From an uncultured virus (IMG/VR IMGVR_UViG_3300050821_007029) (Duplodnaviria; Heunggongvirae; Uroviricota; Caudoviricetes): DNA of 64,000 nucleotides. Under the pieces are notes generated by a model. It saw only the letters and a program-made list of their open reading frames with translations, was not told the DNA's origin and did no database searches. Positions 4,808-59,938 of this stretch are shown in pieces. The first letter of the stretch is position 1, and each line of letters opens with the position of its first letter. The translations under genes and the position numbers were made by a program. Location: IMG/VR virus record IMGVR_UViG_3300050821_007029. The stretch is one strand, 5' to 3'.

Positions 4808-4900
4808 TGTGGGCGTGCCTTCCATGCGTGGTGGCTGGGATTTGGTGGTTGGGCGCGGGCACCCGGCGGCACGAATCCGCGGGTGCCCGCGCCCTGCTCG

Positions 4901-28232: not shown

Positions 28233-28283
28233 GTGGTGGTGGTTGGACACCCCCATCTTATGTAGAAAAGACGGGGTCCGCAA
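28233..28283 (-). promoter_or_regulatory. box-containing promoter TTGCGG-17-TAAGAT
   Basis: TTTTCTACA abuts -10; CAACCACCAC leader. Confidence 0.85.
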
Positions 28284-29446: not shown

Positions 29447-29476
29447 GTGGTGGTTCCTTTCGTGGTGGCTGGGCTT

Positions 29477-32797: not shown

Positions 32798-33367
32798 TCA
32801 CCCCATGACCTTCTCCCAGACGCGCCGGGCCCACCTTGCGTCACCCAGCGCCGTATGCCGCTCATCATCACCCGGCGGCTCGACACCGATCAGCCGCGAC
32901 AGGTCATCCGACTTCCACGGCAACTCCGGAACCGGCTCACCGCGGCCCCGCACGTAGCCGACGATGAGAGTTTCGAAGTCGATCAGGTGGTAATGCCACG
33001 ACGGACAGATACCCCGGGCCCGCATCCGGGCACCGAGGACGTCGGCGTCGAATCCGGGGACACCGCCGATGATGTGGGCGCCGCGGGTCATCGCCTCAAC
33101 CTCGGCCAGGACGTGTTTCTCCCCGCCCACCCGGACGCCGTGGGGATAGCGGTTGCTGTGCTCCGGGTGGCGTTCGAAGAACCGGCCGATCTTCAGCGAC
33201 ATCAGGTCGGCGTTGCCGAGGTCGAGGTCTTCGAGGAGAACGAACCAGGACTTCTCCACCACCCCATGCACTGCGGGGTCGTCGAGGACGACCGCGATCT
33301 CCCACGCCCGCCGGTCGGCTCTGAGAGACGTTGTCTCCGTGTCCACATAAGCCCGGGCTGTCGTCAT
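32798..33367 (-). CDS. DnaQ-like (DEDDh) 3'-5' exonuclease
   Basis: DTETTS, FD, HTALGDA. Confidence 0.85.
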   Translation of the reverse strand: MTTARAYVDTETTSLRADRRAWEIAVVLDDPAVHGVVEKSWFVLLEDLDLGNADLMSLKIGRFFERHPEHSNRYPHGVRVGGEKHVLAEVEAMTRGAHIIGGVPGFDADVLGARMRARGICPSWHYHLIDFETLIVGYVRGRGEPVPELPWKSDDLSRLIGVEPPGDDERHTALGDARWARRVWEKVMG

Positions 33368-33695
33368 GCGGTTGGTCCTTTCCACGCGGCGGGTGGGATG
33401 TCAGCGAACGTCGCCGCCAGGCCCCGCAGCTGGTCGGCGCAGGCGAGCATCACCGACGCCTCCGCGCCCAGGATCATCTGCTTCGGGCCCAACGGAGCCG
33501 CCGTGGACGCGGCCTGCTGCCGGTGAGCTGACTCGGTGGTCCACTCGTCGTAGAGGACAGCGAGGGCGCCAAGGATGATCCGCGCCGACAGTGGCAGCTC
33601 ATCCACGACAGCGGCCGGACCACCGGTGGGGACGACAGCGCCGGTGATGACATCAGCGCCAGCCAGCGCCGGTGGGCTCGCTGGTTCCACCGATG

Positions 33696-33869
33696 TCACT
33701 TCGAAGGCTTCCGCTTCGGCTTGGTGCCGTCGAGTTGCTTGGGTACGGCGTAGCCGCCGGCGCTGTCCACGCTCAGCGACAGCGCCCGGTCAGCGTCGGG
33801 GTCGTCGGTGTCGAGACGCTGCGCCTTCACCTCGGTCAGGCCGTCGCTGTCGGGTTCGGTAGCTGCCAT
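33696..33869 (-). CDS. small acidic protein
   Basis: GAGGGAGG RBS. Confidence 0.6.
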   Translation of the reverse strand: MAATEPDSDGLTEVKAQRLDTDDPDADRALSLSVDSAGGYAVPKQLDGTKPKRKPSK

Positions 33870-33927
33870 CGTTCCTCCCTCAATCGGGCTGTTCACACAG
33901 GTACGCGTTGACCGCCGGTCCGCATGA

Positions 33928-34785
33928 TCACGGCACCGGCGGCGGGGTGGGCACGATGATCCGGGGTTCCCCGTCGTCGGTCAGGTCAGTGTCAGTGACC
34001 TGAACGGGCAGCCCCATGAGCAGGTCGCCCTCATGGGGCTGCCCGGCGGTGTAGCCGCTCCACGCGGCGACCCGCTCATACCAGGCGCGGCTCATCACCC
34101 ACCAAGACGACGCCGCGGTGATAGGGCTGGCCGCTCTGTACGCGGCGCGGAGAACCTTTCCCACTTCCGGATCATGCGCGGGCATCCCCACTGGGATGGG
34201 CTCCGCCAGTTCCACCGGCGCCCGGCGCGTGGCCACGGGCTCGCCGGGAAACTCCCAGGCGGGCTGGGCGACGGCGAGCTCGTCGGCGAGGATCACCATG
34301 GCCCGCACACCCGTATCCATGCAAGCCGACGACAGCCGCTCCACGTAGTGGGCGTGAGCGTCGGGTGTGGTGTCCCAGGGGAGGCGGACGACGAGGACCT
34401 GGCCCGGGCGGACCACCGCGACACACTCACGGATCGCCGCCACGACCACCTCCGGCGACGGCGGGCCGCCAGGGACCGGCTGCGCTCGGGCGTCACGCTG
34501 GGCCGCGACGAGAGCCTCCACCAGCCACACCGGGGTGTCACCGTCGTCAGCTACCCGGACCATCCGCTCATCGGAGCCGGTGACCCGCGCGCCCCGTTCC
34601 CACACCAGCCGGCCACCGTCAGCGGGATAGCGCACGAGGGCGAACTCCGCCGCCACCGGGTCCAGGCCAGCGCCGTCCGGGTCGATCAGCGGCCAGTTGT
34701 CACCTGGTTCCCTGGCCGCCGAATACTCGAAGCGGTCATAGCCGGCGGTGGGCACGTGGTGGTACGTCACCAGCGTCAGCTTCAC
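33928..34785 (-). CDS. hypothetical multi-domain protein
   Basis: 285-aa coupled ORF. Confidence 0.65.
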   Translation of the reverse strand: MKLTLVTYHHVPTAGYDRFEYSAAREPGDNWPLIDPDGAGLDPVAAEFALVRYPADGGRLVWERGARVTGSDERMVRVADDGDTPVWLVEALVAAQRDARAQPVPGGPPSPEVVVAAIRECVAVVRPGQVLVVRLPWDTTPDAHAHYVERLSSACMDTGVRAMVILADELAVAQPAWEFPGEPVATRRAPVELAEPIPVGMPAHDPEVGKVLRAAYRAASPITAASSWWVMSRAWYERVAAWSGYTAGQPHEGDLLMGLPVQVTDTDLTDDGEPRIIVPTPPPVP

Positions 34786-35287
34786 AGCAGCCCGCCTTTC
34801 ACCGTCACGTCCTGGGTGCGGCGACCATCAGCCCACACCACCGGCCGCCACAAAACCATGTCAGCCATTTCCGACAAACGCGCCTTGCACGCCGCCTCAT
34901 CAGCGCACTCCCACTCGCCGTCCGCGGCTTCCAGGTCGTCATCGTCGACCGGCTGGGCGGCGCCCTCAGCGGTGATGTCAGCACCGCACCACGCGCACGC
35001 CCGCTGCCGGGAATGGAGGTAGTACAGCAGGTCGGTGTACTCGCGGCAGTCATCGGTGGGGCCGAACAGATGCGGGGGCTTCGGCGCGTCCATGTAGCCG
35101 GCACAGTCCTGGTCGCAGTTGGACTGGCCGTAGAGGCCCTCATCGCGGCCGAGGCGGTTTTTCTTCCGCCCGCAGGTGGCGCAGAACACCGTCGTCCAGC
35201 ACGACGGCTGGCACTCCATCAGCACGCCTAACGTGTACCCATCCAGACCGGTCCGGGCCATGTGCTCGCGGGCGAGGTCCAGGGCCG

Positions 35288-35551
35288 TCATTGGGCACCG
35301 CCCGCGTAGCAGAACTCGCGGAGGCCGTCGTCGCCGATACGGCCGTTCCACCGGTACAGGAACGTCCGGAGTTCCGGGGCGAGATGAGCCGACGTCATAG
35401 CCAGCGCGGCGGAAGCCAGGGTCACCACCCGCTCGTCAGGGACCATGATGTCCCGGCGGTCCTCACGGACCCGGATCACACGGCCAGCCTGCGGCCCGTC
35501 GACGAGGAACACCTCAATGTCGGCGGCGTCATACAGGTCAGTGAGATTCAC
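35288..35551 (-). CDS. hypothetical protein
   Basis: FLVDGPQAG motif; GTGA overlap at 35548-35551. Confidence 0.65.
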   Translation of the reverse strand: MNLTDLYDAADIEVFLVDGPQAGRVIRVREDRRDIMVPDERVVTLASAALAMTSAHLAPELRTFLYRWNGRIGDDGLREFCYAGGAQ

Positions 35552-36065
35552 AGCGGCCACTCCGGCTTCCAGTCCGGGCGGTACTCGGGATGATCACTCC
35601 AGGCGGTGGCGAGGGTCCTGAGCACCTGCTGCCGGTACCAGCCGAGGAAGCCAAGTTCCTGTTCGGTGAGCTCTCGGCCAGGCGCGTAACGGCGGCGTGC
35701 TCGTTAATGATCTTCCGCTTCGCCGCGACCTCACGCAGCACGCGGGCTGGGTCATGGCGCGCTACATGCCTGGCTACCAGCGGAGAGATTTCTTCGGCGT
35801 TGATCACGAAATGTGGCAGTGGGCCCACGAAGGCAGTCGGATAGGTTTCAGCGCTTCGCAGCGCCACGGGTGCCGCGCTATCTAGCATTTCCTCATTCGC
35901 CGCGATGGCCTGCCCCACGTCCACGGGCTTCCCACTGGCCGAGTCCACCCATCGCCAATGCTCAGCGACCTGAGCCTCTCTGCCCCACTCACCGGAGGCG
36001 GCCAATGCGATCCGCTCGTCCTCATTGAGCCGGGCGTTCAGGAAGACCAGCAGCGGATCGGTCAC
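35548..36065 (-). pseudogene. DUF6221 family gene with 2-bp frameshift near 35671-35675
   Basis: N-part FLNARLNEDE...HDPARVLREVAAKR; C-terminal VLRTLATAWSDHPEYRPDWKP lies in another frame. Confidence 0.75.
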
Positions 36066-36694
36066 GGCTTCCACTCCGCGCGGTAATCAGGATGATCGGC
36101 GTAAACAGCCGCGAGATGGAGCAGCGGGCAGACCGTGTCGCCCTCGCAGACCTGGCAGCCGTACTCGTCTGGCGTGTGCTGCGCCAGGATCACCCGCTTC
36201 GCCGCCACCTCACGGCGGACCCGCGTCTCCCACACCGTGGTCTGAGCGTCCAGGCCATCCTCGATCCGGCTCGACAGATGCTCCTCGTACCGGTCGTAGC
36301 CCCTGAGCCCGAACCGGAGGTCATCCAAGGCACGCCGCCCCGGCGTCGGCGATACCCAATCCTCGTCCAAACGGGCCGACAGGAACTCCGCCAGGCCGGG
36401 GCCGGGAAGCCGTGTGATGCTGGCCTCGCGGACCGCCAGCATCCCCGGCAGGACATGAACCAGCGCGACCGGGCGCAAACCCACCGGATCCGCGGGCCTC
36501 AACGGCGGCCGCCCAGGCGTGCCGGGGATCACGGTCACCCCGGTGGGTGATACGCACACCAGGTCGATACGTGGCCAGAAGGCGTCCGGAGGCGCGAGTT
36601 CCATCTTGGTGTCGCCATCCACGCCGCCGACCCTGATGGTGAGATGTCCCGCTGGCGCGACCTCGTCCGGTGCCAGCCGGCGATCCTGGCTCAC
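36062..36694 (-). CDS. DUF6221 family protein
   Basis: EFLSARLDED...REVAAKR...VYADHPDYRAEWKP. Confidence 0.8.
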   Translation of the reverse strand: MSQDRRLAPDEVAPAGHLTIRVGGVDGDTKMELAPPDAFWPRIDLVCVSPTGVTVIPGTPGRPPLRPADPVGLRPVALVHVLPGMLAVREASITRLPGPGLAEFLSARLDEDWVSPTPGRRALDDLRFGLRGYDRYEEHLSSRIEDGLDAQTTVWETRVRREVAAKRVILAQHTPDEYGCQVCEGDTVCPLLHLAAVYADHPDYRAEWKP

Positions 36695-37068
36695 GGCCCG
36701 TCACCCACCCGCGGCGGCACGGGAACGAATGGGAACATGCCCAGCGTCTCCCGCGCTGCCTCGACAGCCGCACGCTGACGCGTCTCAGCGTCAGCCGCGC
36801 CACTGATTGTGACCTTGCCGTAGATCACATCCGTGATCAGGGTCGCCGTGACCTCATCAGTGAACTGGTCCACCACGTCGAGGAGCTGGCATGTGTACTC
36901 GATCGCGGCGAGCATCCGGTGGACCGCCGTCATGCCCTTGCACGTCCCGGGACAGCAGGGAACGAGATGGATCCGGCAATGCGTGAACAACGTCTCCCCG
37001 CAGTTCCGGCAGGTGCGGTCACCGATCAGCGGCTCATCCTGGGTGGCCCGTGGCGGGCGCTCACGCAC
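36691..37068 (-). CDS. Cys-rich hypothetical protein (start uncertain)
   Basis: CRNC...CCPGTC; coupled at 3' end. Confidence 0.5.
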   Translation of the reverse strand: MRERPPRATQDEPLIGDRTCRNCGETLFTHCRIHLVPCCPGTCKGMTAVHRMLAAIEYTCQLLDVVDQFTDEVTATLITDVIYGKVTISGAADAETRQRAAVEAARETLGMFPFVPVPPRVGDGP

Positions 37069-37391
37069 CCCGAGTCTGCGTGGCCCCGGTGAGCCTGGGG
37101 ACTGCGTTCCACGCCGATCATTCACCGCTGATCCCCTACTGCGGCCCACCAGGGCCTCGACGTGGGGGCGGATTCGAGTGTCAGACCCGCCACGGGCCTT
37201 TCCGGCAGCGGCGCCCCGAGTCTGGGATGCGGTGCGCGCCTGGCCGCTGCCGGGGACAACCTCGGTGGGCGTGAGACCAACCACCACGAAGGTTGCCCTA
37301 GCGGGAGGCTACGCCATCGACCGCCGGACACACCCACGCCCACCGAGGGCTTTATCATCGCCGGCTCCCACGAGTGCGTCTAACAACGCAC
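37062..37391 (-). ncRNA. candidate structured RNA
   Basis: 14-bp and 11-bp perfect stems plus smaller hairpins; poor coding; downstream of the promoter at 37576-37604. Confidence 0.45.
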
Positions 37392-37551
37392 GTCAGGGGC
37401 CGCGATAGCTTCATTTGCCGTCTCCGAGTTCCGGGGCCGGCTGCCCGGTCCGCCGCTCCCGGCTGATACGCACCGGGGGTGCCCATCTCAGGCTGGTAGC
37501 CGGTGTAGGAGCAGGTGGCCAGTTGCGGATGGTCCACGGGTGGTCCTCCGG

Positions 37552-37604
37552 TGTGGTGGTTGGAGTAGTGATCCCAGTCTATGTAGAAACAGGTTGCTGG
37601 TCAA
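37552..37604 (-). promoter_or_regulatory. box-containing promoter TTGACC-17-TAGACT
   Basis: TTTCTACA abuts -10; CAACCACCAC-GGAGG leader. Confidence 0.85.
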
Positions 37605-37627
37605 TCATCGTCCGGTGGCCCTGAAGG

Positions 37628-37889
37628 TCAGGCACCGTCGCTTCCCTTTGGCCAAAGACTCACGATCACCCAGTCCTCTCCAGCCGACTCGGCCGTGAAG
37701 TGAAGATCACGGACCTCAGCGATCCGCATCACCATCTCCGCGTTCCGCGCGTACACCCAGTTGCCCGTCCACGCGGCCCGCTTGGCTGACGCGCTCCCAC
37801 ACCATGCCGATCTGAACACCCCGTGTGAACTCGGGGTCATCGCTGTCAAACGGCAGCACCAGGCCATACGCGGCGTTCTGGTCGGTCAC
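37628..37889 (-). pseudogene. hypothetical gene with apparent 1-bp frameshift near 37756
   Basis: LVLPFDSDDPEFTRG N-part continues naturally as VYARNAEMVMRIAE in another frame. Confidence 0.5.
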
Positions 37890-37983
37890 CGGCGCCCCCC
37901 GGCTTGGCGGCGGCGTGCGCGCACCCGCAGCCACACGGCCACACCAGCGGCCACCGCGGCAACGCACACCGCCGCGAGGACGA

Positions 37984-38325
37984 TCATTCGGGGTCGCCGA
38001 TGCCGTGGGCCCGCCGGGCCACCTCACCAGCGCCGGAGCCGGGCTGCACCGACCGCAGGTGACGCCTGGAGCGGCGCAGCGCGGCGACGAGGTCCTGCAC
38101 CTGGTGGTTTTCCTGCCCGGCGCGGATCGTCTCCAAGACGATGTCAGCGGCGAGCTCATGCGGGCGGCGATGCTCGAGGAAGCACATGGCTTCGAACGTC
38201 TCGATCTGAGCCTCACCGAGGATCCGCACGGTCGTCTTGGCGTAGGGCACCTCATCCTGGGGGCGGCGGCCCACCTGGCCACGCCGGCGGGGGCCGGGGG
38301 TGCCGCACAGGTAGCGGCGCATCAT
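37984..38325 (-). CDS. hypothetical protein, possible ribbon-helix-helix
   Basis: KTTVRI beta strand followed by two helices. Confidence 0.5.
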   Translation of the reverse strand: MMRRYLCGTPGPRRRGQVGRRPQDEVPYAKTTVRILGEAQIETFEAMCFLEHRRPHELAADIVLETIRAGQENHQVQDLVAALRRSRRHLRSVQPGSGAGEVARRAHGIGDPE

Positions 38326-38754
38326 GGTGTCTCGCCAGGGTTCAATCTGCCCTCCCTGATTATTGGGCGCTCACGGCGGACGCCGCTGCTGGGGTCGTCG
38401 AGGAACGCGTCCACCGCCCGCGCGGTTTCCGGCTGGGCCACGAGCCGGGCACGCGCCTCCGCGTCGGTGAGGCTCGACGGCAAGTGCATGTGGGCGCGCT
38501 GCCGCTCCGCGAGGCCTTCCAGCACATAGGAGATCAGGGCGGCCGCGTAGCGGTCACCGCGGCCCGAGCACGCCTTGTCAAGGACGGCGCCGACCTCGCG
38601 GCACACACCGAGCTGGGCGTCGAACGCCTCGTTCCACGCGAGGTCCTCCTCACCCTCCACCGCGTCAGCGAGACGTTCAGCGGCGGTGCGGAGCACGTCA
38701 GGTGGGGCGTTGAGGACGGCGCGGAGCTCGGCGGCGCGGGCGAGTGGGCTGGTG

Positions 38755-39018
38755 TCATCCATCGGTGTTGTCCTCATCCTCTACCAGGAACCGGACGTCG
38801 AACAACGCCATGTACGCCTGCGTCGACCCCGACGCCTCAGCGGCGAGTGCCGCGGCGCAGCGCGCGTCATAGGTGAGCGCCCCCGCCGTCGGCGGCTGTT
38901 CCAGCGCGGCTAGCAGACGGGTCAGGTGCTGGGACGCGTAGGTGGCGGCACGTTTGGCATTGTCGTGGTGCCGTTTCGCCTCGGACTCATACCCGTGGAC
39001 TCGGATGGGGTCCACCAC
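38755..39018 (-). CDS. hypothetical protein
   Basis: GAGGAG RBS just 3' of the tRNA-like element. Confidence 0.65.
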   Translation of the reverse strand: MVDPIRVHGYESEAKRHHDNAKRAATYASQHLTRLLAALEQPPTAGALTYDARCAAALAAEASGSTQAYMALFDVRFLVEDEDNTDG

Positions 39019-39038
39019 GGGTGTCTCCTCTCGCGCTG

Positions 39039-39169
39039 TGGGGTGGGGCCCGGCGGGCCGGAATTGAACCGGCGGCCTCCGGTCGCACCCTCCCCCGCGT
39101 CCCTTGACGGGCTGGGGGTGGGCGGGCCCTGCCGGCGCTCTGCCCAACTGAGCTGCCGCCGGGCCCCAC
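39039..39169 (-). ncRNA. tRNA-like RNA with extended acceptor stem and hairpin-expanded anticodon arm
   Basis: D arm GCTC-AGTTGGGCA-GAGC, variable AGGCC, T arm GCCGG-TTCAATT-CCGGC, 14-bp closing stem, 3' CCCA. Confidence 0.8.
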
Positions 39170-39182
39170 GACTAGGGGGTGA

Positions 39183-39806
39183 TCAGGGATTGACCCACTT
39201 CAGTGTTAGCCGCGACTGCGAACCGCTGAAACAGCCGTGAGCGCGGACGTTGGAACCGGAACGCGTATAGAACTCCATGCACTGCGGATAAGCGCCGCCG
39301 CGGCCAGTGTTATTGGTCGCCACCACGTTGACCAGCTTGAACGAAGCGGTATGCGGCACCGGGAGGTAGACCCACAGCGCCCGCTTCGCGGAACAGGGGC
39401 CGATGACGATATAGCCGGGGGAAGACGCGGACTCGACCTGGCAGAGTGAGCGGTTGTTGTCGAACGGCAACGTGATCAGCTGGGCGCCGTTGAACTGGTG
39501 AGCCACGCCACTGTTCTTGAGGGGACCGCTGAGGGTGACGTGGCCAGCGCGGGAGAAACGCGTGTCATAGCCGGATGGCACGCCGTACATGTACTCGCCG
39601 CTTTTCGTGGTGCCGTGCTGGGGGGCGTCGTAGCGGCCACCGGAGACATGCTCCAGAAAATAGGGGCCCGGCTTGGCGGGCATGCGGGTAACAGGAGCGG
39701 AGATGGTGTGGGGGACACGCGTGGCGGCCATGGCGGGCGCGGCGAGGGTGAAACAGGCGGCGATGGCGGCGGAAACCGCCAGGGCCGCGCGGACACGGAA
39801 ACGCAT
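39183..39806 (-). CDS. secreted protein, possible ricin-type beta-trefoil part
   Basis: signal peptide ending AMA; LCQ...VIGPC...W pattern. Confidence 0.65.
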   Translation of the reverse strand: MRFRVRAALAVSAAIAACFTLAAPAMAATRVPHTISAPVTRMPAKPGPYFLEHVSGGRYDAPQHGTTKSGEYMYGVPSGYDTRFSRAGHVTLSGPLKNSGVAHQFNGAQLITLPFDNNRSLCQVESASSPGYIVIGPCSAKRALWVYLPVPHTASFKLVNVVATNNTGRGGAYPQCMEFYTRSGSNVRAHGCFSGSQSRLTLKWVNP

Positions 39807-39984
39807 GTGGTTCCTTCCAGATCGTGATGGCTGGTGAACAGGTCCCCGGCCGGGTGCCAGCCTGACTTACCCGGCCGGGGACGACTATGGGTGACGCAAA
39901 CCCGGGCGGCCCGATGCCGCCGCGGGGCGGAACCCTGGCCCGGGCACCACCACGGAAGCGCCCGGGCCAGGAACCAGTTGGGTG

Positions 39985-41262
39985 TTACAGGGCCGCGGCG
40001 AGTTCCATCGCCTGCACCGCGGCACGCTCAATGTCGTACGCCCGGTCCGGGCTGTCGACGGTCTGCGCGAACGAACTCACGGCCTGCATCACGCCGCCCG
40101 CGGTCAGCTGGCCGCCGGCGACGAAATGAGCCAGGACACCCGCGCGCTCAGCCTCGGTGAAGCCCAGCTTCCTGGTGACGGTCTCCACCGCGGCGGCGGG
40201 GTCAGCGACACGGATGCCAGCCTTCTCCTCCACCCACGCGACGGTCTTCGCCAGCCACTCCGGGTTCAGCCACTCCTGAACCGCGTCCCGGGTGCGGGCG
40301 GCGACCACCGCGAGTTCTTTCCGCTGCGTGTCGGCTGACTCCGCGACGACACCCGCGTCATGCCGGGAGCCGAGATGAACCTTGCGGAGGCTGTCGGCGA
40401 GGATGACGAGGCCGTTGTCACACACCCTGACCTTGATCAGGGGATTCAGGTTGAACGCGCCGTCACCCGTCTCCGAGTTGCTGATCCTGAAACCAGCCCA
40501 GACGATCGGCTCAGCGCCCTCGTCGAAACCCTTCCCCTCACGCCCAGCGGCGGCCCGGCCGCGCTGCAGCGACCACCCGTTGGCCCGCTGAATGGTGGGG
40601 TCGGCGAACGGGCTGCGGTAACTGGTCAGCAGCAGCGGCGCGAGCATCCGCACCCCCGGAGCCTCCAGCGTGACCGTCATCCGCCGCTCCGACAGGTCAC
40701 AGGTGGTGACGTGGGCGTCGGCACCGGAGTCCTGAACACCCTGCAAAGCGGCGGTGAGGACGTCGAGATGGTCCATCGTGGTCCGGTAAGAGTCGGACAG
40801 CATCGCCCGGCCCACACCCACGCCGTCGTCGCCGCGGAACAGCCGCAGCATGAACTTCCGGGTGTCCGGCTCGCGGATGACCTTGACGTCCATCGTGTTC
40901 CCGGACGCGTCCGGGACGGGCACCTCGTGGCCGTGGAGCCAGCCGTTGGCGTTGGCGTCGTACAGGTCCGGTGCCTCGTTCCGCATCCGGCGGACGTAGG
41001 CGCGGGGCACACCCAGCTTCTCAGCCAGGCCCTCGTCGAACACCTCGGTCGGCTGGTAGATCCCGTCGACCGTCTGAACCCCGTCGTCGGTGATCTCAGC
41101 TTCGACACCGTTGACGATCAGCTGGGTGCCTTCGAACCGCATCGCGGCGGCGTTCGCGACCACGTCGAGCTTGCGGCCCTGCTGTTCGGAGAGGATCTTC
41201 GCGATTTTGTCGAGCCCGGCGAACCGGGCGGTGAGGGGAATGGCTGGCGCGTCAGGAGCCAT
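39985..41262 (-). CDS. DUF932-related phage protein
   Basis: RAMLSDSY, ISNSETG, VCDNGL motifs; GAAGGA RBS after promoter. Confidence 0.75.
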   Translation of the reverse strand: MAPDAPAIPLTARFAGLDKIAKILSEQQGRKLDVVANAAAMRFEGTQLIVNGVEAEITDDGVQTVDGIYQPTEVFDEGLAEKLGVPRAYVRRMRNEAPDLYDANANGWLHGHEVPVPDASGNTMDVKVIREPDTRKFMLRLFRGDDGVGVGRAMLSDSYRTTMDHLDVLTAALQGVQDSGADAHVTTCDLSERRMTVTLEAPGVRMLAPLLLTSYRSPFADPTIQRANGWSLQRGRAAAGREGKGFDEGAEPIVWAGFRISNSETGDGAFNLNPLIKVRVCDNGLVILADSLRKVHLGSRHDAGVVAESADTQRKELAVVAARTRDAVQEWLNPEWLAKTVAWVEEKAGIRVADPAAAVETVTRKLGFTEAERAGVLAHFVAGGQLTAGGVMQAVSSFAQTVDSPDRAYDIERAAVQAMELAAAL

Positions 41263-41279
41263 GTGGGCTTTCCTTCCGG

Positions 41280-41330
41280 GTGGTGGTGGTTGTCCCCCCC
41301 CAGTGTATGTAGAAAAGTAGAAAAGAGCAA
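41280..41330 (-). promoter_or_regulatory. promoter TTGCTC-17-TACACT with tandem boxes
   Basis: spacer is TTTTCTAC-TTTTCTACA. Confidence 0.85.
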
Positions 41331-41672
41331 TCGTGGTCACGGAATCGCGACGGCCACGATGATCGCCAGCACCGCTGATGGCAGCACCCACACCGGCGCC
41401 CCGTGGATCACATGAACAGCGGACAGCCACGCCACCCCAGCCAGGATCAGCGCGACGACGATCAGCAGCCAGCGGAACAGGTCAGAAGCCTTCACGGCGT
41501 CTCCATCCTCAAAGGGCCGACTGGAACGCCGCCACCGGCACAGTGACCGGCGCGCTATCCGGGATCACCCGGCGCAGCGTCTCACCGAGGGTCGCCTCGT
41601 CCAGGGCGGGCAGCTCCCCGAACGGCACCTCACGAAGATCGGAGACCACCGAAACCACCGGCTCGCTGAGTT

Positions 41673-42035
41673 TCACGGGACGTTCACCTCTTCGGGGCCA
41701 TCAACCCATACCTCACCATCCGGTGGGCCATACGTTGGGGTGCCACGCGGCGCCGGCCGTTCAAGTTCCCACCGGGCCACCGGAGCCGACCCACCCGACA
41801 TCGCGCCGACAGCCCGCGCGGTTTCCTCATCGGTGATGGTGAGGCAGTAGAACGCCTGCGGCCACGGCAGGAACTGTGTCATCACCGGCGGGCCAGTCAG
41901 GCCATGCACGTCCACCCGCAGATACGTTGACTCGGCTAGGGAACCCTGGTCCGACGACACGCGCCCGCCGACACGGCGGCGGCCCATCAGCTCCACGATC
42001 GCCCACTCGCCGAACCGGGCGTCCTCAGAGACCAT
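41673..42035 (-). CDS. phage hypothetical protein
   Basis: WAIVELMG...RVDV...TQF...TDEETA. Confidence 0.7.
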   Translation of the reverse strand: MVSEDARFGEWAIVELMGRRRVGGRVSSDQGSLAESTYLRVDVHGLTGPPVMTQFLPWPQAFYCLTITDEETARAVGAMSGGSAPVARWELERPAPRGTPTYGPPDGEVWVDGPEEVNVP

Positions 42036-42975
42036 GCGAATCAAGCCAGGAGATGGCCGCCTGAGCGTCGGTGCGGACCAGCGACGCCAGCTCCCCCAGC
42101 AGACCCTGAGCGGGCGCCGGAGAGGGCCCAGGCACCGGGGCGGGGCTGGGCGGCACCACGTACGGGAACGGGCGGCCCGTGATCACCTGGTAGTCGGAGG
42201 CGAACTGGGCCATGTCCACACCCTGCATGAACTCCAGCGACCCAAGCATCTCCGGCCAGATCACCACCCACGCTTCCTCAACCGCACTGGCCCAGAACGA
42301 GTCATCGAAACTCGTCTCAGCGGCCCAGGTCACGAACCGCTCATCGCCCCCCAGCGGGCCGGGGCCGGGCGGCCCGTAGCCGCCGGTGAGGACCGCGTGG
42401 CCGCCAGCGGCCTGCGCCGACGGATCCCATGACCACGGCTGGCCCGCGGCGAACTCCTGCTCGTTGACATCGAGGACGGTGATCCCCGTCAGCAGCGACC
42501 CGAACAGGGCGATCGCCGCCTTGACCTCAGCGGTGCGGGCAGGGTTGACCTGCGCGAACCCGACCGCCTTGACACCGTCGGGGCCGCCGGTCTTCGTCAG
42601 GTACTCCAGCAGCGTCTGCAGGTCCATCCCGCCGTCCGCGGGACTGCCTGGGCCGTCTACCGCCGGATCACCGTTGGGGTCGAACCCTGGGTTTTGCGAA
42701 GCGTAGACGCTGTAGACCATGGCCAGATCCGGGTAGCGGGCCGTGCCGGTCAGGGCAGCCGTGACCAGTCTCCGGTTATTGGCCCACGAAACCGCGGCGC
42801 AATCACCCACGGTGTCGTTGCCGAGCATCTGCCAGCCACCATCCAGCGCGGCGAGGTAATCCGCGGCCACCGGATGCGCTGGGACCACACCAGTCAGCAG
42901 GGGGGCCAGCTGAACCGCTGGCTTCCGCGACGGTGGCCGGCGGCCGTACGCGCCAGGCGCACGCTGCCCGCTCAC
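42025..42975 (-). CDS. papain-like (C1-type) cysteine peptidase
   Basis: GNDTVGDC nucleophile; GGHAVLTGGY; VTW. Confidence 0.75.
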   Translation of the reverse strand: MSGQRAPGAYGRRPPSRKPAVQLAPLLTGVVPAHPVAADYLAALDGGWQMLGNDTVGDCAAVSWANNRRLVTAALTGTARYPDLAMVYSVYASQNPGFDPNGDPAVDGPGSPADGGMDLQTLLEYLTKTGGPDGVKAVGFAQVNPARTAEVKAAIALFGSLLTGITVLDVNEQEFAAGQPWSWDPSAQAAGGHAVLTGGYGPPGPGPLGGDERFVTWAAETSFDDSFWASAVEEAWVVIWPEMLGSLEFMQGVDMAQFASDYQVITGRPFPYVVPPSPAPVPGPSPAPAQGLLGELASLVRTDAQAAISWLDSHGL

Positions 42976-43438
42976 GCGTCCTCACCAGCAACCGGGGCCT
43001 GCCCGTTCTCGGCCGCCTGCCCACCCGCCGAGTACACGTCGATCGTCCACGCGATCACCCGTCGCCGCGCTGGCTCCGGCAGGGCCGACAGGACCCGTTC
43101 CATCGTCTGCATCGCCGCGGTTTCCTGCGCCAGTTCCCGTGACTGCGCCACGTCTCAGTCCTCCCGAACGTCGATCAGCAGCGGCGTCAGGGAGCCGCCG
43201 TCGAACCCGGACGAAGCCGGTGTGCGTGTCCACACCCGCCCCTTCTGGTCAAGCCACCCAACACGGCGCAGCGTCGCCGACGGGCGGTCAGCACGCGCCA
43301 CGGCCAGGTCGCCGTTGACGTCGCGGACCTCATCCGCGTGAACACGCCAGTTCTCACCGTCGGACGCGCTCATCCCCGTGTAGTGGGCCACGGCGGTCTC
43401 TGCGGGGCGCCCAGCGACCGGCGACATGAAAGCACCCA

Positions 43439-59768: not shown

Positions 59769-59896
59769 GCGTATCCTTCCGTTGGGATCACGCGCCCGTG
59801 GCCCGGGGAAACCTTTGGCAGGGGAACGCGGGGCCGCGTGCGCCTTAACTCTCGGGAAAATAGCAGGCCCGCTGACGCTTGCCCGTTACTTCCCCG

Positions 59897-59938
59897 AAAC
59901 ACGCCAGCCCCGGGCACCGACCCTCGCCCGGGGCTGGC
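59897..59938 (-). terminator. intrinsic terminator
   Basis: 13-bp stem gccagccccgggc then GTGTTT. Confidence 0.7.

Follow-up and report, generated by a model that had tools for sequence, protein, structure and literature searches.

Start-associated sequences (SAS), together with a single copy of reverse orientation, were noted in the Cluster K mycobacteriophages in 2011, and the sections of that report considered here do not settle if they are read by a protein or by an RNA, of phage or of host origin (PMC3203893). The motifs of Clusters K and EF are described as containing AGGAG or AGGA, i.e., the core of the Shine-Dalgarno sequence. At the RNA level, the small RNA (sRNA) B11 of actinobacteria is described, in the sections consulted, as exposing pyrimidine-rich tracts which pair with purine-rich 5' regions of mRNAs and repress them (PMC10470900). 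Here we analyze a stretch of 64,000 nucleotides (nt) of an uncultured actinobacterial soil phage of the Caudoviricetes (IMG/VR record IMGVR_UViG_3300050821_007029; the whole stretch is referred to as the window), in which a structured region among the early genes carries, on the minus strand, the exact antisense of a leader motif, CCAACCACCAC, found in front of many start codons. Most simply, this element is a structured non-coding RNA segment with a deliberate-looking antisense of the start-associated leader, and rather than a free-standing sRNA we would call it an anti-leader RNA which is embedded in an mRNA and possibly processed.

The leader motif is strongly overrepresented in the window: eight exact copies were observed versus 0.11 expected (100 shuffles, both strands). 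Seven of them lie on the minus strand, which is the gene strand, and the sole plus-strand copy is that of the structured region, so that the inverted copy of the shared leader reported by an earlier reading of the sequence alone (the sequence-only reading) was found again. After six of the seven exact minus-strand copies, a ribosome-binding site follows at 1-8 nt, with a start codon behind it. When up to one mismatch was allowed, the number rose to 24 copies, 20 being minus-strand ones, and because 15 minus-strand copies stand 1-8 nt 5' of a GGAGG-type site followed by a start codon, we regard the leader as a real start-associated element. Its spacing to the ribosome-binding site stays within the same limits even at genes lacking a nearby promoter (e.g., at 29462, 9922 and 4828), which ties the motif to translation starts and not to promoters. 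The motif itself is free of G, the GGAGG-type site being separate and 3' of it; after some leaders, e.g., those of the units at 28236 and 29462, the site is of the GAAGG type. Among the nine bona fide variants at gene starts, seven are transitions (CCGACC, CCAGCC, TCAACC), and the other two are a transversion (ACAACC) and a double change (CTAACC). As the motif holds C and A only, the transition variants would still pair with a G/U tract by wobble, and this bias is to be taken as weak evidence, since the leader copies are paralogues.

The inverted copy resides in the first of three consecutive stem-closed domains, separated by linkers of 6 and 3 nt (Table 1). Two perfect stems had been listed by the sequence-only reading, and both were recovered by direct reading of the letters and again by computation: the arms of domain 1 (37260-37273, CCTCGGTGGGCGTG, with 37335-37348, CACGCCCACCGAGG; 14 bp, 100% complementary) and those of domain 2 (37202-37212, CCGGCAGCGGC, with 37243-37253, GCCGCTGCCGG; 11 bp, perfect). 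A third stem, absent from that list, closes domain 3 (37045-37057 with 37186-37198, 128 nt between the arms). According to the predicted minus-strand fold, the stem of domain 1 is lengthened by a G.U and a G-C pair, while the pairing of domain 3 spans GTG 37068 with the bases upstream of it, thus burying the likely start of the next gene, that of an open reading frame of 125 codons (ORF125). Such clustering is rare, as only three of 637 sliding segments of 381 nt hold three of the 29 perfect inverted repeats of the window (at least 11 bp, loops up to 135 nt), one at this locus and two at 701/801. Compared to its shuffled versions, the 381-nt sequence of 37020-37400 folds better, with z-scores of -3.79 (minus strand) and -3.55 (plus strand), which bears out the structured character proposed earlier. 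The fold of 37040-37352 has an energy of -180.5 kcal/mol with nine G.U pairs on the minus strand and of -171.7 kcal/mol with six on the plus strand; the difference of 8.8 kcal/mol and the greater number of G.U pairs give a slight lean to a minus-strand RNA without deciding the matter.

Read along the plus strand, domain 1 has an insert of 61 nt made up of CCAACCACCAC (37277-37287), GAAGG (37288-37292), 10 nt and GGGAGG (37303-37308). A minus-strand RNA would accordingly present CCUCCC, 10 nt, CCUUC and then GUGGUGGUUGG, i.e., the order of an anti-Shine-Dalgarno-like tract followed by the anti-leader is as formerly stated. An accessible seed complementary to the targets, as is expected of an sRNA, is predicted here: an 11-nt exact complement, unpaired at 0.69 on average, with values of 0.66-0.99 for its first six bases.

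Table 1. Features of the structured region, its promoter and neighboring reading frames, and copies of the promoter box and of variant leaders in the window (positions of the window; pairing values are predicted).
Feature	Position	Strand	Details
Domain 1	37260-37348	minus	Perfect 14-bp stem around a 61-nt three-way junction (predicted); fold z -4.36 minus, -4.86 plus
Domain 2	37202-37253	minus	Perfect 11-bp stem, 30-nt insert; fold z -2.30 minus, -1.37 plus
Domain 3	37045-37198	minus	Perfect 13-bp stem closing a long helix; fold z -5.30 minus, -4.22 plus
Anti-leader GUGGUGGUUGG	37277-37287	minus	No other exact inverted leader copy in the window; mean unpaired 0.69 (predicted)
CCUUC	37288-37292	minus	Directly 5' of the anti-leader; complement of GAAGG-type ribosome-binding sites
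CCUCCC, anti-Shine-Dalgarno-like	37303-37308	minus	Predicted paired within domain 1, unpaired 0.05
Promoter-like site TTGACC-17-TAGACT	37604-37576	minus	Consensus scan; overlaps one copy of the box TTTCTACATAGAATGGGG (37572-37589)
Sense leader CCAACCACCAC	37553-37563	minus	Followed by ACC, GGAGG (37549-37545) and GTG (37537)
ORF60 (doubtful gene)	37355-37537	minus	After a good leader, GGAGG and GTG; G+C at codon positions 1/2/3 0.67/0.67/0.69
ORF125	36691-37068	minus	Cys-rich protein, next gene downstream; G+C at codon positions 1/2/3 0.67/0.52/0.81
Box TTTCTACATAGAATGGGG, copies	10215, 20919, 28251, 31658, 37572, 41298, 58865	minus	
Leader copies with variants	575, 4828, 9922, 11440, 20905, 29462, 31644, 41283, 58851		At gene starts

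Codon periodicity is strong at 36700-37000 and is lost at approximately 37020-37450; the non-coding interval comprises about 37069-37354, possibly extending to 37450, and no periodicity was found in any plus-strand frame at the locus. By these codon statistics the region is non-coding, which supports the sequence-only reading of an RNA. The short frame upstream of it, ORF60, is doubtful because of its flat G+C content over the codon positions (0.65/0.77/0.58 in its second half) and because a search among proteins of 33-105 residues gave no homologue; it is either a short upstream reading frame, perhaps, or not a gene. For the downstream gene, ORF125, the open in-frame extension (37069-37287) has G+C values of 0.75/0.70/0.70, and the one remote homologue of the protein (P0001, 119 amino acids, E 6.6e-7) aligns to its C-terminal half only. 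If the alternative start GTG 37125, preceded by AGGGGA, were used, the non-coding gap would be of about 230 nt. Neither ORF60 nor ORF125 had a match in PHROGs or Pfam.

A consensus scan of 36600-37900 revealed one promoter-like site only, on the minus strand (Table 1), and neither a plus-strand site of this kind nor a terminator-like one. U runs are absent 3' of all three stems and the loops are long (61, 30 and 128 nt), so a cluster of intrinsic terminators was rejected. Actinobacterial terminators can lack U tracts, which makes the search for a terminator belonging to the element a weak test. Given that the promoter at 37604-37576 is the sole one nearby and that no terminator was found, the structured segment appears to be part of a leader-initiated transcript, on which the sense leader and its antisense copy would lie 265 nt apart. 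The sequence-only reading had placed the element downstream of a boxed promoter: the promoter is indeed upstream, but no promoter abuts the stems, as about 230 nt, holding a leader, a ribosome-binding site and the doubtful 60-codon frame, separate the end of the -10 element from the first stem. The promoter box TTTCTACATAGAATGGGG occurs seven times in the window (0.00 expected), each time as a minus-strand copy. Five of the seven box promoters have exactly 8 nt between the end of the -10 element and the leader motif, by inference putting the leader at or beside the mRNA 5' end in those five. The TTTCTAC part of the box is tandemly doubled at 41298 and 58865. A single copy of the identical 18-mer is present in a 79-kb IMG/VR phage (G002).

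Parts of 36900-37700 were present in one DNA run and two metatranscriptome runs, belonging to three studies. Contigs of one RNA library (X2) cover 36956-37106 and 37092-37384, and a contig of the other (X3) covers 37401-37551, with no differing letters; such contigs show presence in RNA libraries only, with no strand, ends or level. Elsewhere in 33000-43000, the only perfect contig of these two libraries is at 39716-39866, along with three short partial X3 pieces with loose ends or mismatches. Considering that both libraries were found by means of this very stretch, and as contigs only, the bare neighborhood is not evidence of a higher expression at the locus.

The 11-bp duplex of anti-leader and leader has a predicted energy of -19.6 kcal/mol. 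With intramolecular structure ignored, the best duplexes pair the anti-leader with the leader, and at most leaders CCUCC also joins the ribosome-binding site across an internal loop. When structure was included, the dimer ensembles with 16 leader-bearing 5' regions ranged from -5.2 to -16.2 kcal/mol (median -8.0), as compared to -4.2 +/- 2.6 kcal/mol (5th percentile -9.1, minimum -12.9) for 200 random minus-strand segments. Binding of leaders is therefore predicted to be favored modestly, not strikingly. The best predicted partner is a leader unit at 925 that lacks an ORF (-16.2 kcal/mol, past the minimum of the background).

These data are consistent with the following scheme, which we put forward tentatively. 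The stretch of approximately 37045-37348 would be a three-domain non-coding segment of a minus-strand early transcript initiated at the operator-type promoter at 37604-37576, whose stem-closed junction in domain 1 presents GUGGUGGUUGG with the adjoining CCUUC, and CCUCCC 15 nt upstream. The segment may pair with phage messages of at least 15 genes at their leader and ribosome-binding region, acting either within the long transcript or after processing at the long perfect stems, and the transcript which carries it would itself be a target, through its 5' end 265 nt upstream. Such pairing could lower translation or alter stability, resulting in feedback on the leader-bearing early genes. We infer here the strand of the RNA, its pairing in vivo, its processing and the regulatory outcome. 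An anti-leader RNA segment of an early transcript, which regulates by pairing with the leaders of its own and other transcripts, is the reading of the locus that we favor, although we hold it with reserve. If true, it would give a concrete answer to the question of who reads the start-associated sequences, and would place a global post-transcriptional layer on the early genes above the repressor and operator.

A comparable arrangement is observed in Cluster K. Phage Anaya carries 16 forward SAS copies and one reverse copy (59870-59882), the latter being located within the 385-nt gap between gp96 and gp97, with forward genes on both sides. This gap is conserved in 182 phage records and folds with a z-score of -5.96, the antisense CCUCCUAUCC being the apical loop of a long hairpin (loop sequence CCUCCUAUCCC). 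The hairpin stretch (1002-1106 of record L008, i.e., 59801-59905 of Anaya) and the homologous stretches of records L009-L025 were analyzed for covariation; these 18 diverse Cluster K records were picked from 60 listed ones, not at random. A two-hairpin consensus of 25 pairs had 95.7% of its cells paired in the 18 genomes versus 89.2% in shuffles (reached in 0 of 500), and 13 pairs were changed on both sides versus 2.7 expected (0 of 500 shuffles), while slid controls were paired at 34-42%. Wobble pairs make up about 52 of the 414 cells, and a forward-strand RNA is therefore favored in Cluster K. Altogether, the arrangement is seen in two unrelated phage groups and is not universal.

The likeness of the two loci lies in the layout. 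In both groups, an asymmetric motif of one orientation stands upstream of many starts (15 minus-strand copies here), and the reverse copy of Anaya, too, is found in a large structured non-coding gap among forward genes. The sequences differ: the Cluster K one is GGGATAGGAGCCC, whereas the leader of the phage studied here, CCAACCACCAC, is unrelated to GGGATAGGAGCCC or GGGAAAGGACCCC. The motifs of Clusters K and EF hold the Shine-Dalgarno core, whereas the leader here is located 1-8 nt upstream of it. Moreover, the anti-motif of Cluster K occupies a simple apical loop with covariation support and not a predicted three-way junction, and in Anaya the structured region is preceded by a predicted stem-loop with a U run (read as an intrinsic terminator), which is missing here. 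No description of an anti-SAS RNA was found in the literature on start-associated sequences, mycobacteriophage non-coding RNA and phage anti-Shine-Dalgarno RNAs, nor in the Cluster K RNA-seq literature, the ZoeJ RNA-seq paper and figures S3/S4 of PMC3203893 aside. Nor did the searched papers contain a description of the Cluster K1 hairpin which holds the reverse copy in its apical loop. Since the Cluster K phages grow on the laboratory strain Mycobacterium smegmatis mc2 155, the proposal is open to bench experiments.

The antisense RNAs c4 of phage P1 and CI of P4 are cut from a transcript which carries their own target, and act on translation or elongation in the operon. As in these systems, the antisense tract and a target share one predicted transcript at our locus; the P1 and P4 RNAs, however, serve one operon and immunity, unlike the approximately 15 dispersed genes here, and there is no sequence relation. 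With the actinobacterial 6C/B11 sRNAs, as far as the consulted sections describe them, the element would share a structured RNA, a high-GC Gram-positive setting and many mRNA 5' regions as targets. In contrast to them, its exposed tract is G/U-rich and faces a C/A-rich leader, not G tracts, while its C-rich CCUCCC is predicted to be paired, and it is carried by a phage, within an mRNA; membership in 6C/B11 was rejected, as no covariance-model match was obtained even at E values up to 10. Thus, among known systems the locus seems most like the actinobacterial sRNAs with C-rich loops and the antisense RNAs which P1 and P4 derive from a transcript in its presumed working, being a member of none. 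The stoperators of Cluster A phages are DNA sites of the repressor with no fixed relation to ribosome-binding sites. The leader copies resemble them in being numerous, asymmetric, of a 13-bp scale, located in short intergenic gaps and oriented with transcription, and differ in tracking the ribosome-binding site at 1-8 nt and in the presence of a separate box in the promoters.

A number of observations weigh against regulation by an anti-leader RNA. The element is bounded by neither a promoter-like nor a terminator-like site, hence it is not a classical, free-standing sRNA gene; it would share a transcript with one of its would-be targets, which weakens the sRNA of the sequence-only reading. 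Likewise, of the two tracts said to be displayed, the anti-leader is predicted to be mostly unpaired, but CCUCCC is predicted to be paired (0.05 unpaired) and lies 15 nt away from the anti-leader, versus 1-8 nt between the corresponding sites of the leaders. The predicted energies, better than the background to a modest degree, fall short of a clear shut-off of all leader-bearing transcripts: only four of the 16 leaders surpass its 5th percentile of -9.1 kcal/mol, and pairing with the segment's own leader has a probability of about 0.16 in the thermodynamic ensemble of 37570-37020. The search for an RNA, proposed as a check, yielded contigs in two RNA libraries from two studies; these are strandless, and a carry-over of DNA is possible. 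The three defining stems are without any G.U pair and the two strands fold almost equally, therefore the fold distinguishes neither the strand nor RNA from DNA. No relative was found among phages, IMG/VR, metagenome contigs and GTDB genomes. In Cluster K itself, the loop is an exact anti-motif in nine of the 18 genomes, an imperfect pyrimidine-rich sequence in five and absent in four, and all five non-exact genomes checked keep 17-18 forward copies with the motif unchanged, from which it follows that the loop does not strictly track the motif; the loop complement GGGAAGGGAG was not a repeated forward motif in any of Amgine, Amohnition, Unicorn, Shandong1 and Marshawn. Finally, the Cluster EF phage AnnaSerena has ten forward copies and no reverse one.

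Of the alternatives, a purely cis-acting element survives best, although we consider it somewhat doubtful. The region would then be a structured intergenic or 5'-untranslated segment, whose stems stabilize or process the transcript (e.g., as sites of a double-strand-specific RNase) and gate ORF125, the inverted copy having no role in trans. Its position within a polycistronic transcript without a promoter or terminator of its own, the predicted pairing of domain 3 over GTG 37068 and the upstream bases, the extension of the RNA-library contigs into ORF125 (to 36956) and the modest predicted binding in trans all fit such an element. It leaves unexplained, however, why the sole inverted 11-mer (0.11 expected per window) lies exactly here, why two tracts resembling anti-ribosome-binding sites accompany it in the right order, and why Cluster K offers a parallel.

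The order of the tracts has less weight if the module of leader and ribosome-binding site was copied in reverse into the spacer and is now a functionless relic, with the structure being incidental or serving another purpose. The plus strand does look like a full leader unit, CCAACCACCAC followed by GAAGG as at 28236 and 29462, and the homologous origin of an inverted unit would bring about the 'correct order' automatically. Nevertheless, the flanks of the inverted copy align with none of six leader units beyond the 11-mer and the tracts resembling ribosome-binding sites, and the identity of 11 out of 11 is unexpected for a neutral copy while true leaders vary. A plus-strand promoter-leader unit akin to the one at 1683 was also considered and rejected: the shared 10-mer GGTGCGCGCC is not above chance (28 matches at up to one mismatch versus 37.6 expected). 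We find a relic unlikely.

Functioning as DNA, in which case the leader is an asymmetric protein-binding site and the locus a protein-bound or replication-related one (origin, partition or packaging site) with a single reversed copy and cruciform-capable repeats, appears decidedly improbable. It would agree with the purely Watson-Crick stems, with the nearly equal folding of both strands, with the location among replication genes and with the strong orientation of the motif along transcription, which is also noted for stoperators in the consulted part of PMC3203893. Yet the spacing to the ribosome-binding site at promoter-less genes fits a role in RNA or translation better, a separate conserved promoter box is already operator-like, RNA-library contigs cover the locus, and neither iterons nor an AT-rich stretch were seen there. 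Least credible of all is a functional plus-strand RNA, i.e., an antisense transcript with a genuine leader for a tiny ORF or as a leader decoy: the strand does read as a normal leader with a ribosome-binding site, the contigs are strandless and its fold z-score is -3.55, but it has no promoter-like site in 36600-37900, nothing resembling -10 or box elements upstream of its CCAACCACCAC copy, no codon periodicity, and no ATG, GTG or TTG suitably spaced behind its GAAGG or GGGAGG (the TTG abutting GAAGG opens a frame of two codons, and the next in-frame candidate is ATC).

Coming back to the anti-leader RNA segment, a broader proposition may be derived from it, namely that actinobacteriophages with SAS-marked genes also encode a structured 'anti-start-sequence' RNA which presents the exact antisense of the mark and globally tunes or shuts off the translation of the marked genes, the element of the present window and the right-end hairpin of Cluster K representing independent inventions, with the leader-only unit at about 870-940 as a sense-strand counterpart or sponge. 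In this general form we regard it as a speculation that will rather fail than hold. The unit in question lies in a second structured non-coding stretch on the minus strand (640-1060; fold z -4.07), the only other place of the window with three perfect inverted repeats. It comprises a terminator hairpin, then a promoter-like repeat (paralogous to that before the gene at 561), the leader CCAACCACCAC (925-935), a weak GGAAAG and, directly after it, a 14-bp terminator-like hairpin, with no ORF, and it looks like a short leader-only RNA. Tandem leaders precede one start codon at two genes (626-636 with 575-585, and 4842-4852 with 4828-4838), the sequences being CCAACCACCAA, then CCGACCACCAC or CCAGCCACCAC.

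The search for relatives returned the phage itself. Both nearest records, the viral genome G001 (ending at approximately 40650 of the window) and L005, a metagenome locus, are 100% identical and represent this very phage, L005 being the only locus detected in the metagenome scan. Neither the locus nor ORF125 matched the phage collection (blastn, tblastn), scans of IMG/VR with ORF125, the neighboring DUF6221 protein and the homologue P0001 gave no relative, and genome contigs scanned with the 481-residue neighbor protein gave no match. The box-sharing phage G002 was rejected as a relative, having no DNA in common with the locus; its genome contains a 9-nt core of the leader in four forward copies and one reverse copy. 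Matches of a 19-nt pattern of leader and ribosome-binding site (one small IMG/VR contig and eight scattered non-actinobacterial bacterial sequences) were at about the chance level and were discarded. In one Anaerolineae assembly this string occurs three times (L026, L030, L033), at contig ends or within 200 nt of them, which points to a repeat element of that assembly that probably has nothing to do with the phage studied here. Rfam assigned no family to the locus, hits with E values up to 10 being two microRNA precursors and a small nucleolar RNA at the chance level, and ARAGORN detected no tRNA or tmRNA in the whole window.

The base composition of the window is 68-72% G+C, and by codon-position statistics almost every gene from about 1970 to 61230 is on the minus strand. 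The PHROGs names match the non-structural arm of a large temperate actinobacteriophage and include a cro-like repressor, a single-strand annealing protein, exonucleases, a DnaB-like helicase, RusA-like resolvases, a sliding clamp, a methyltransferase, an Lsr2-like protein, a DNA ligase and a queuine tRNA-ribosyltransferase; the excisionase-like genes of the right end are encoded by the plus strand. At the protein level, phages of Arthrobacter, Gordonia and Mycobacterium match best (32-46% identity). The genes around the structured region are those of replication (clamp, exonuclease, DnaB-like helicase, resolvases), and immediately downstream of ORF125 there are two neighboring paralogous genes of the DUF6221/phrog_6326 family (35538-36694). 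The contig at 39716-39866 spans a leader-like CCAGCCATCAC, a ribosome-binding site and the signal-peptide-like N-terminus of a 207-residue ORF (39183-39806); two strong hairpins precede this ORF, an arrangement resembling that of a moron (39716-39866, also 39870-39990).

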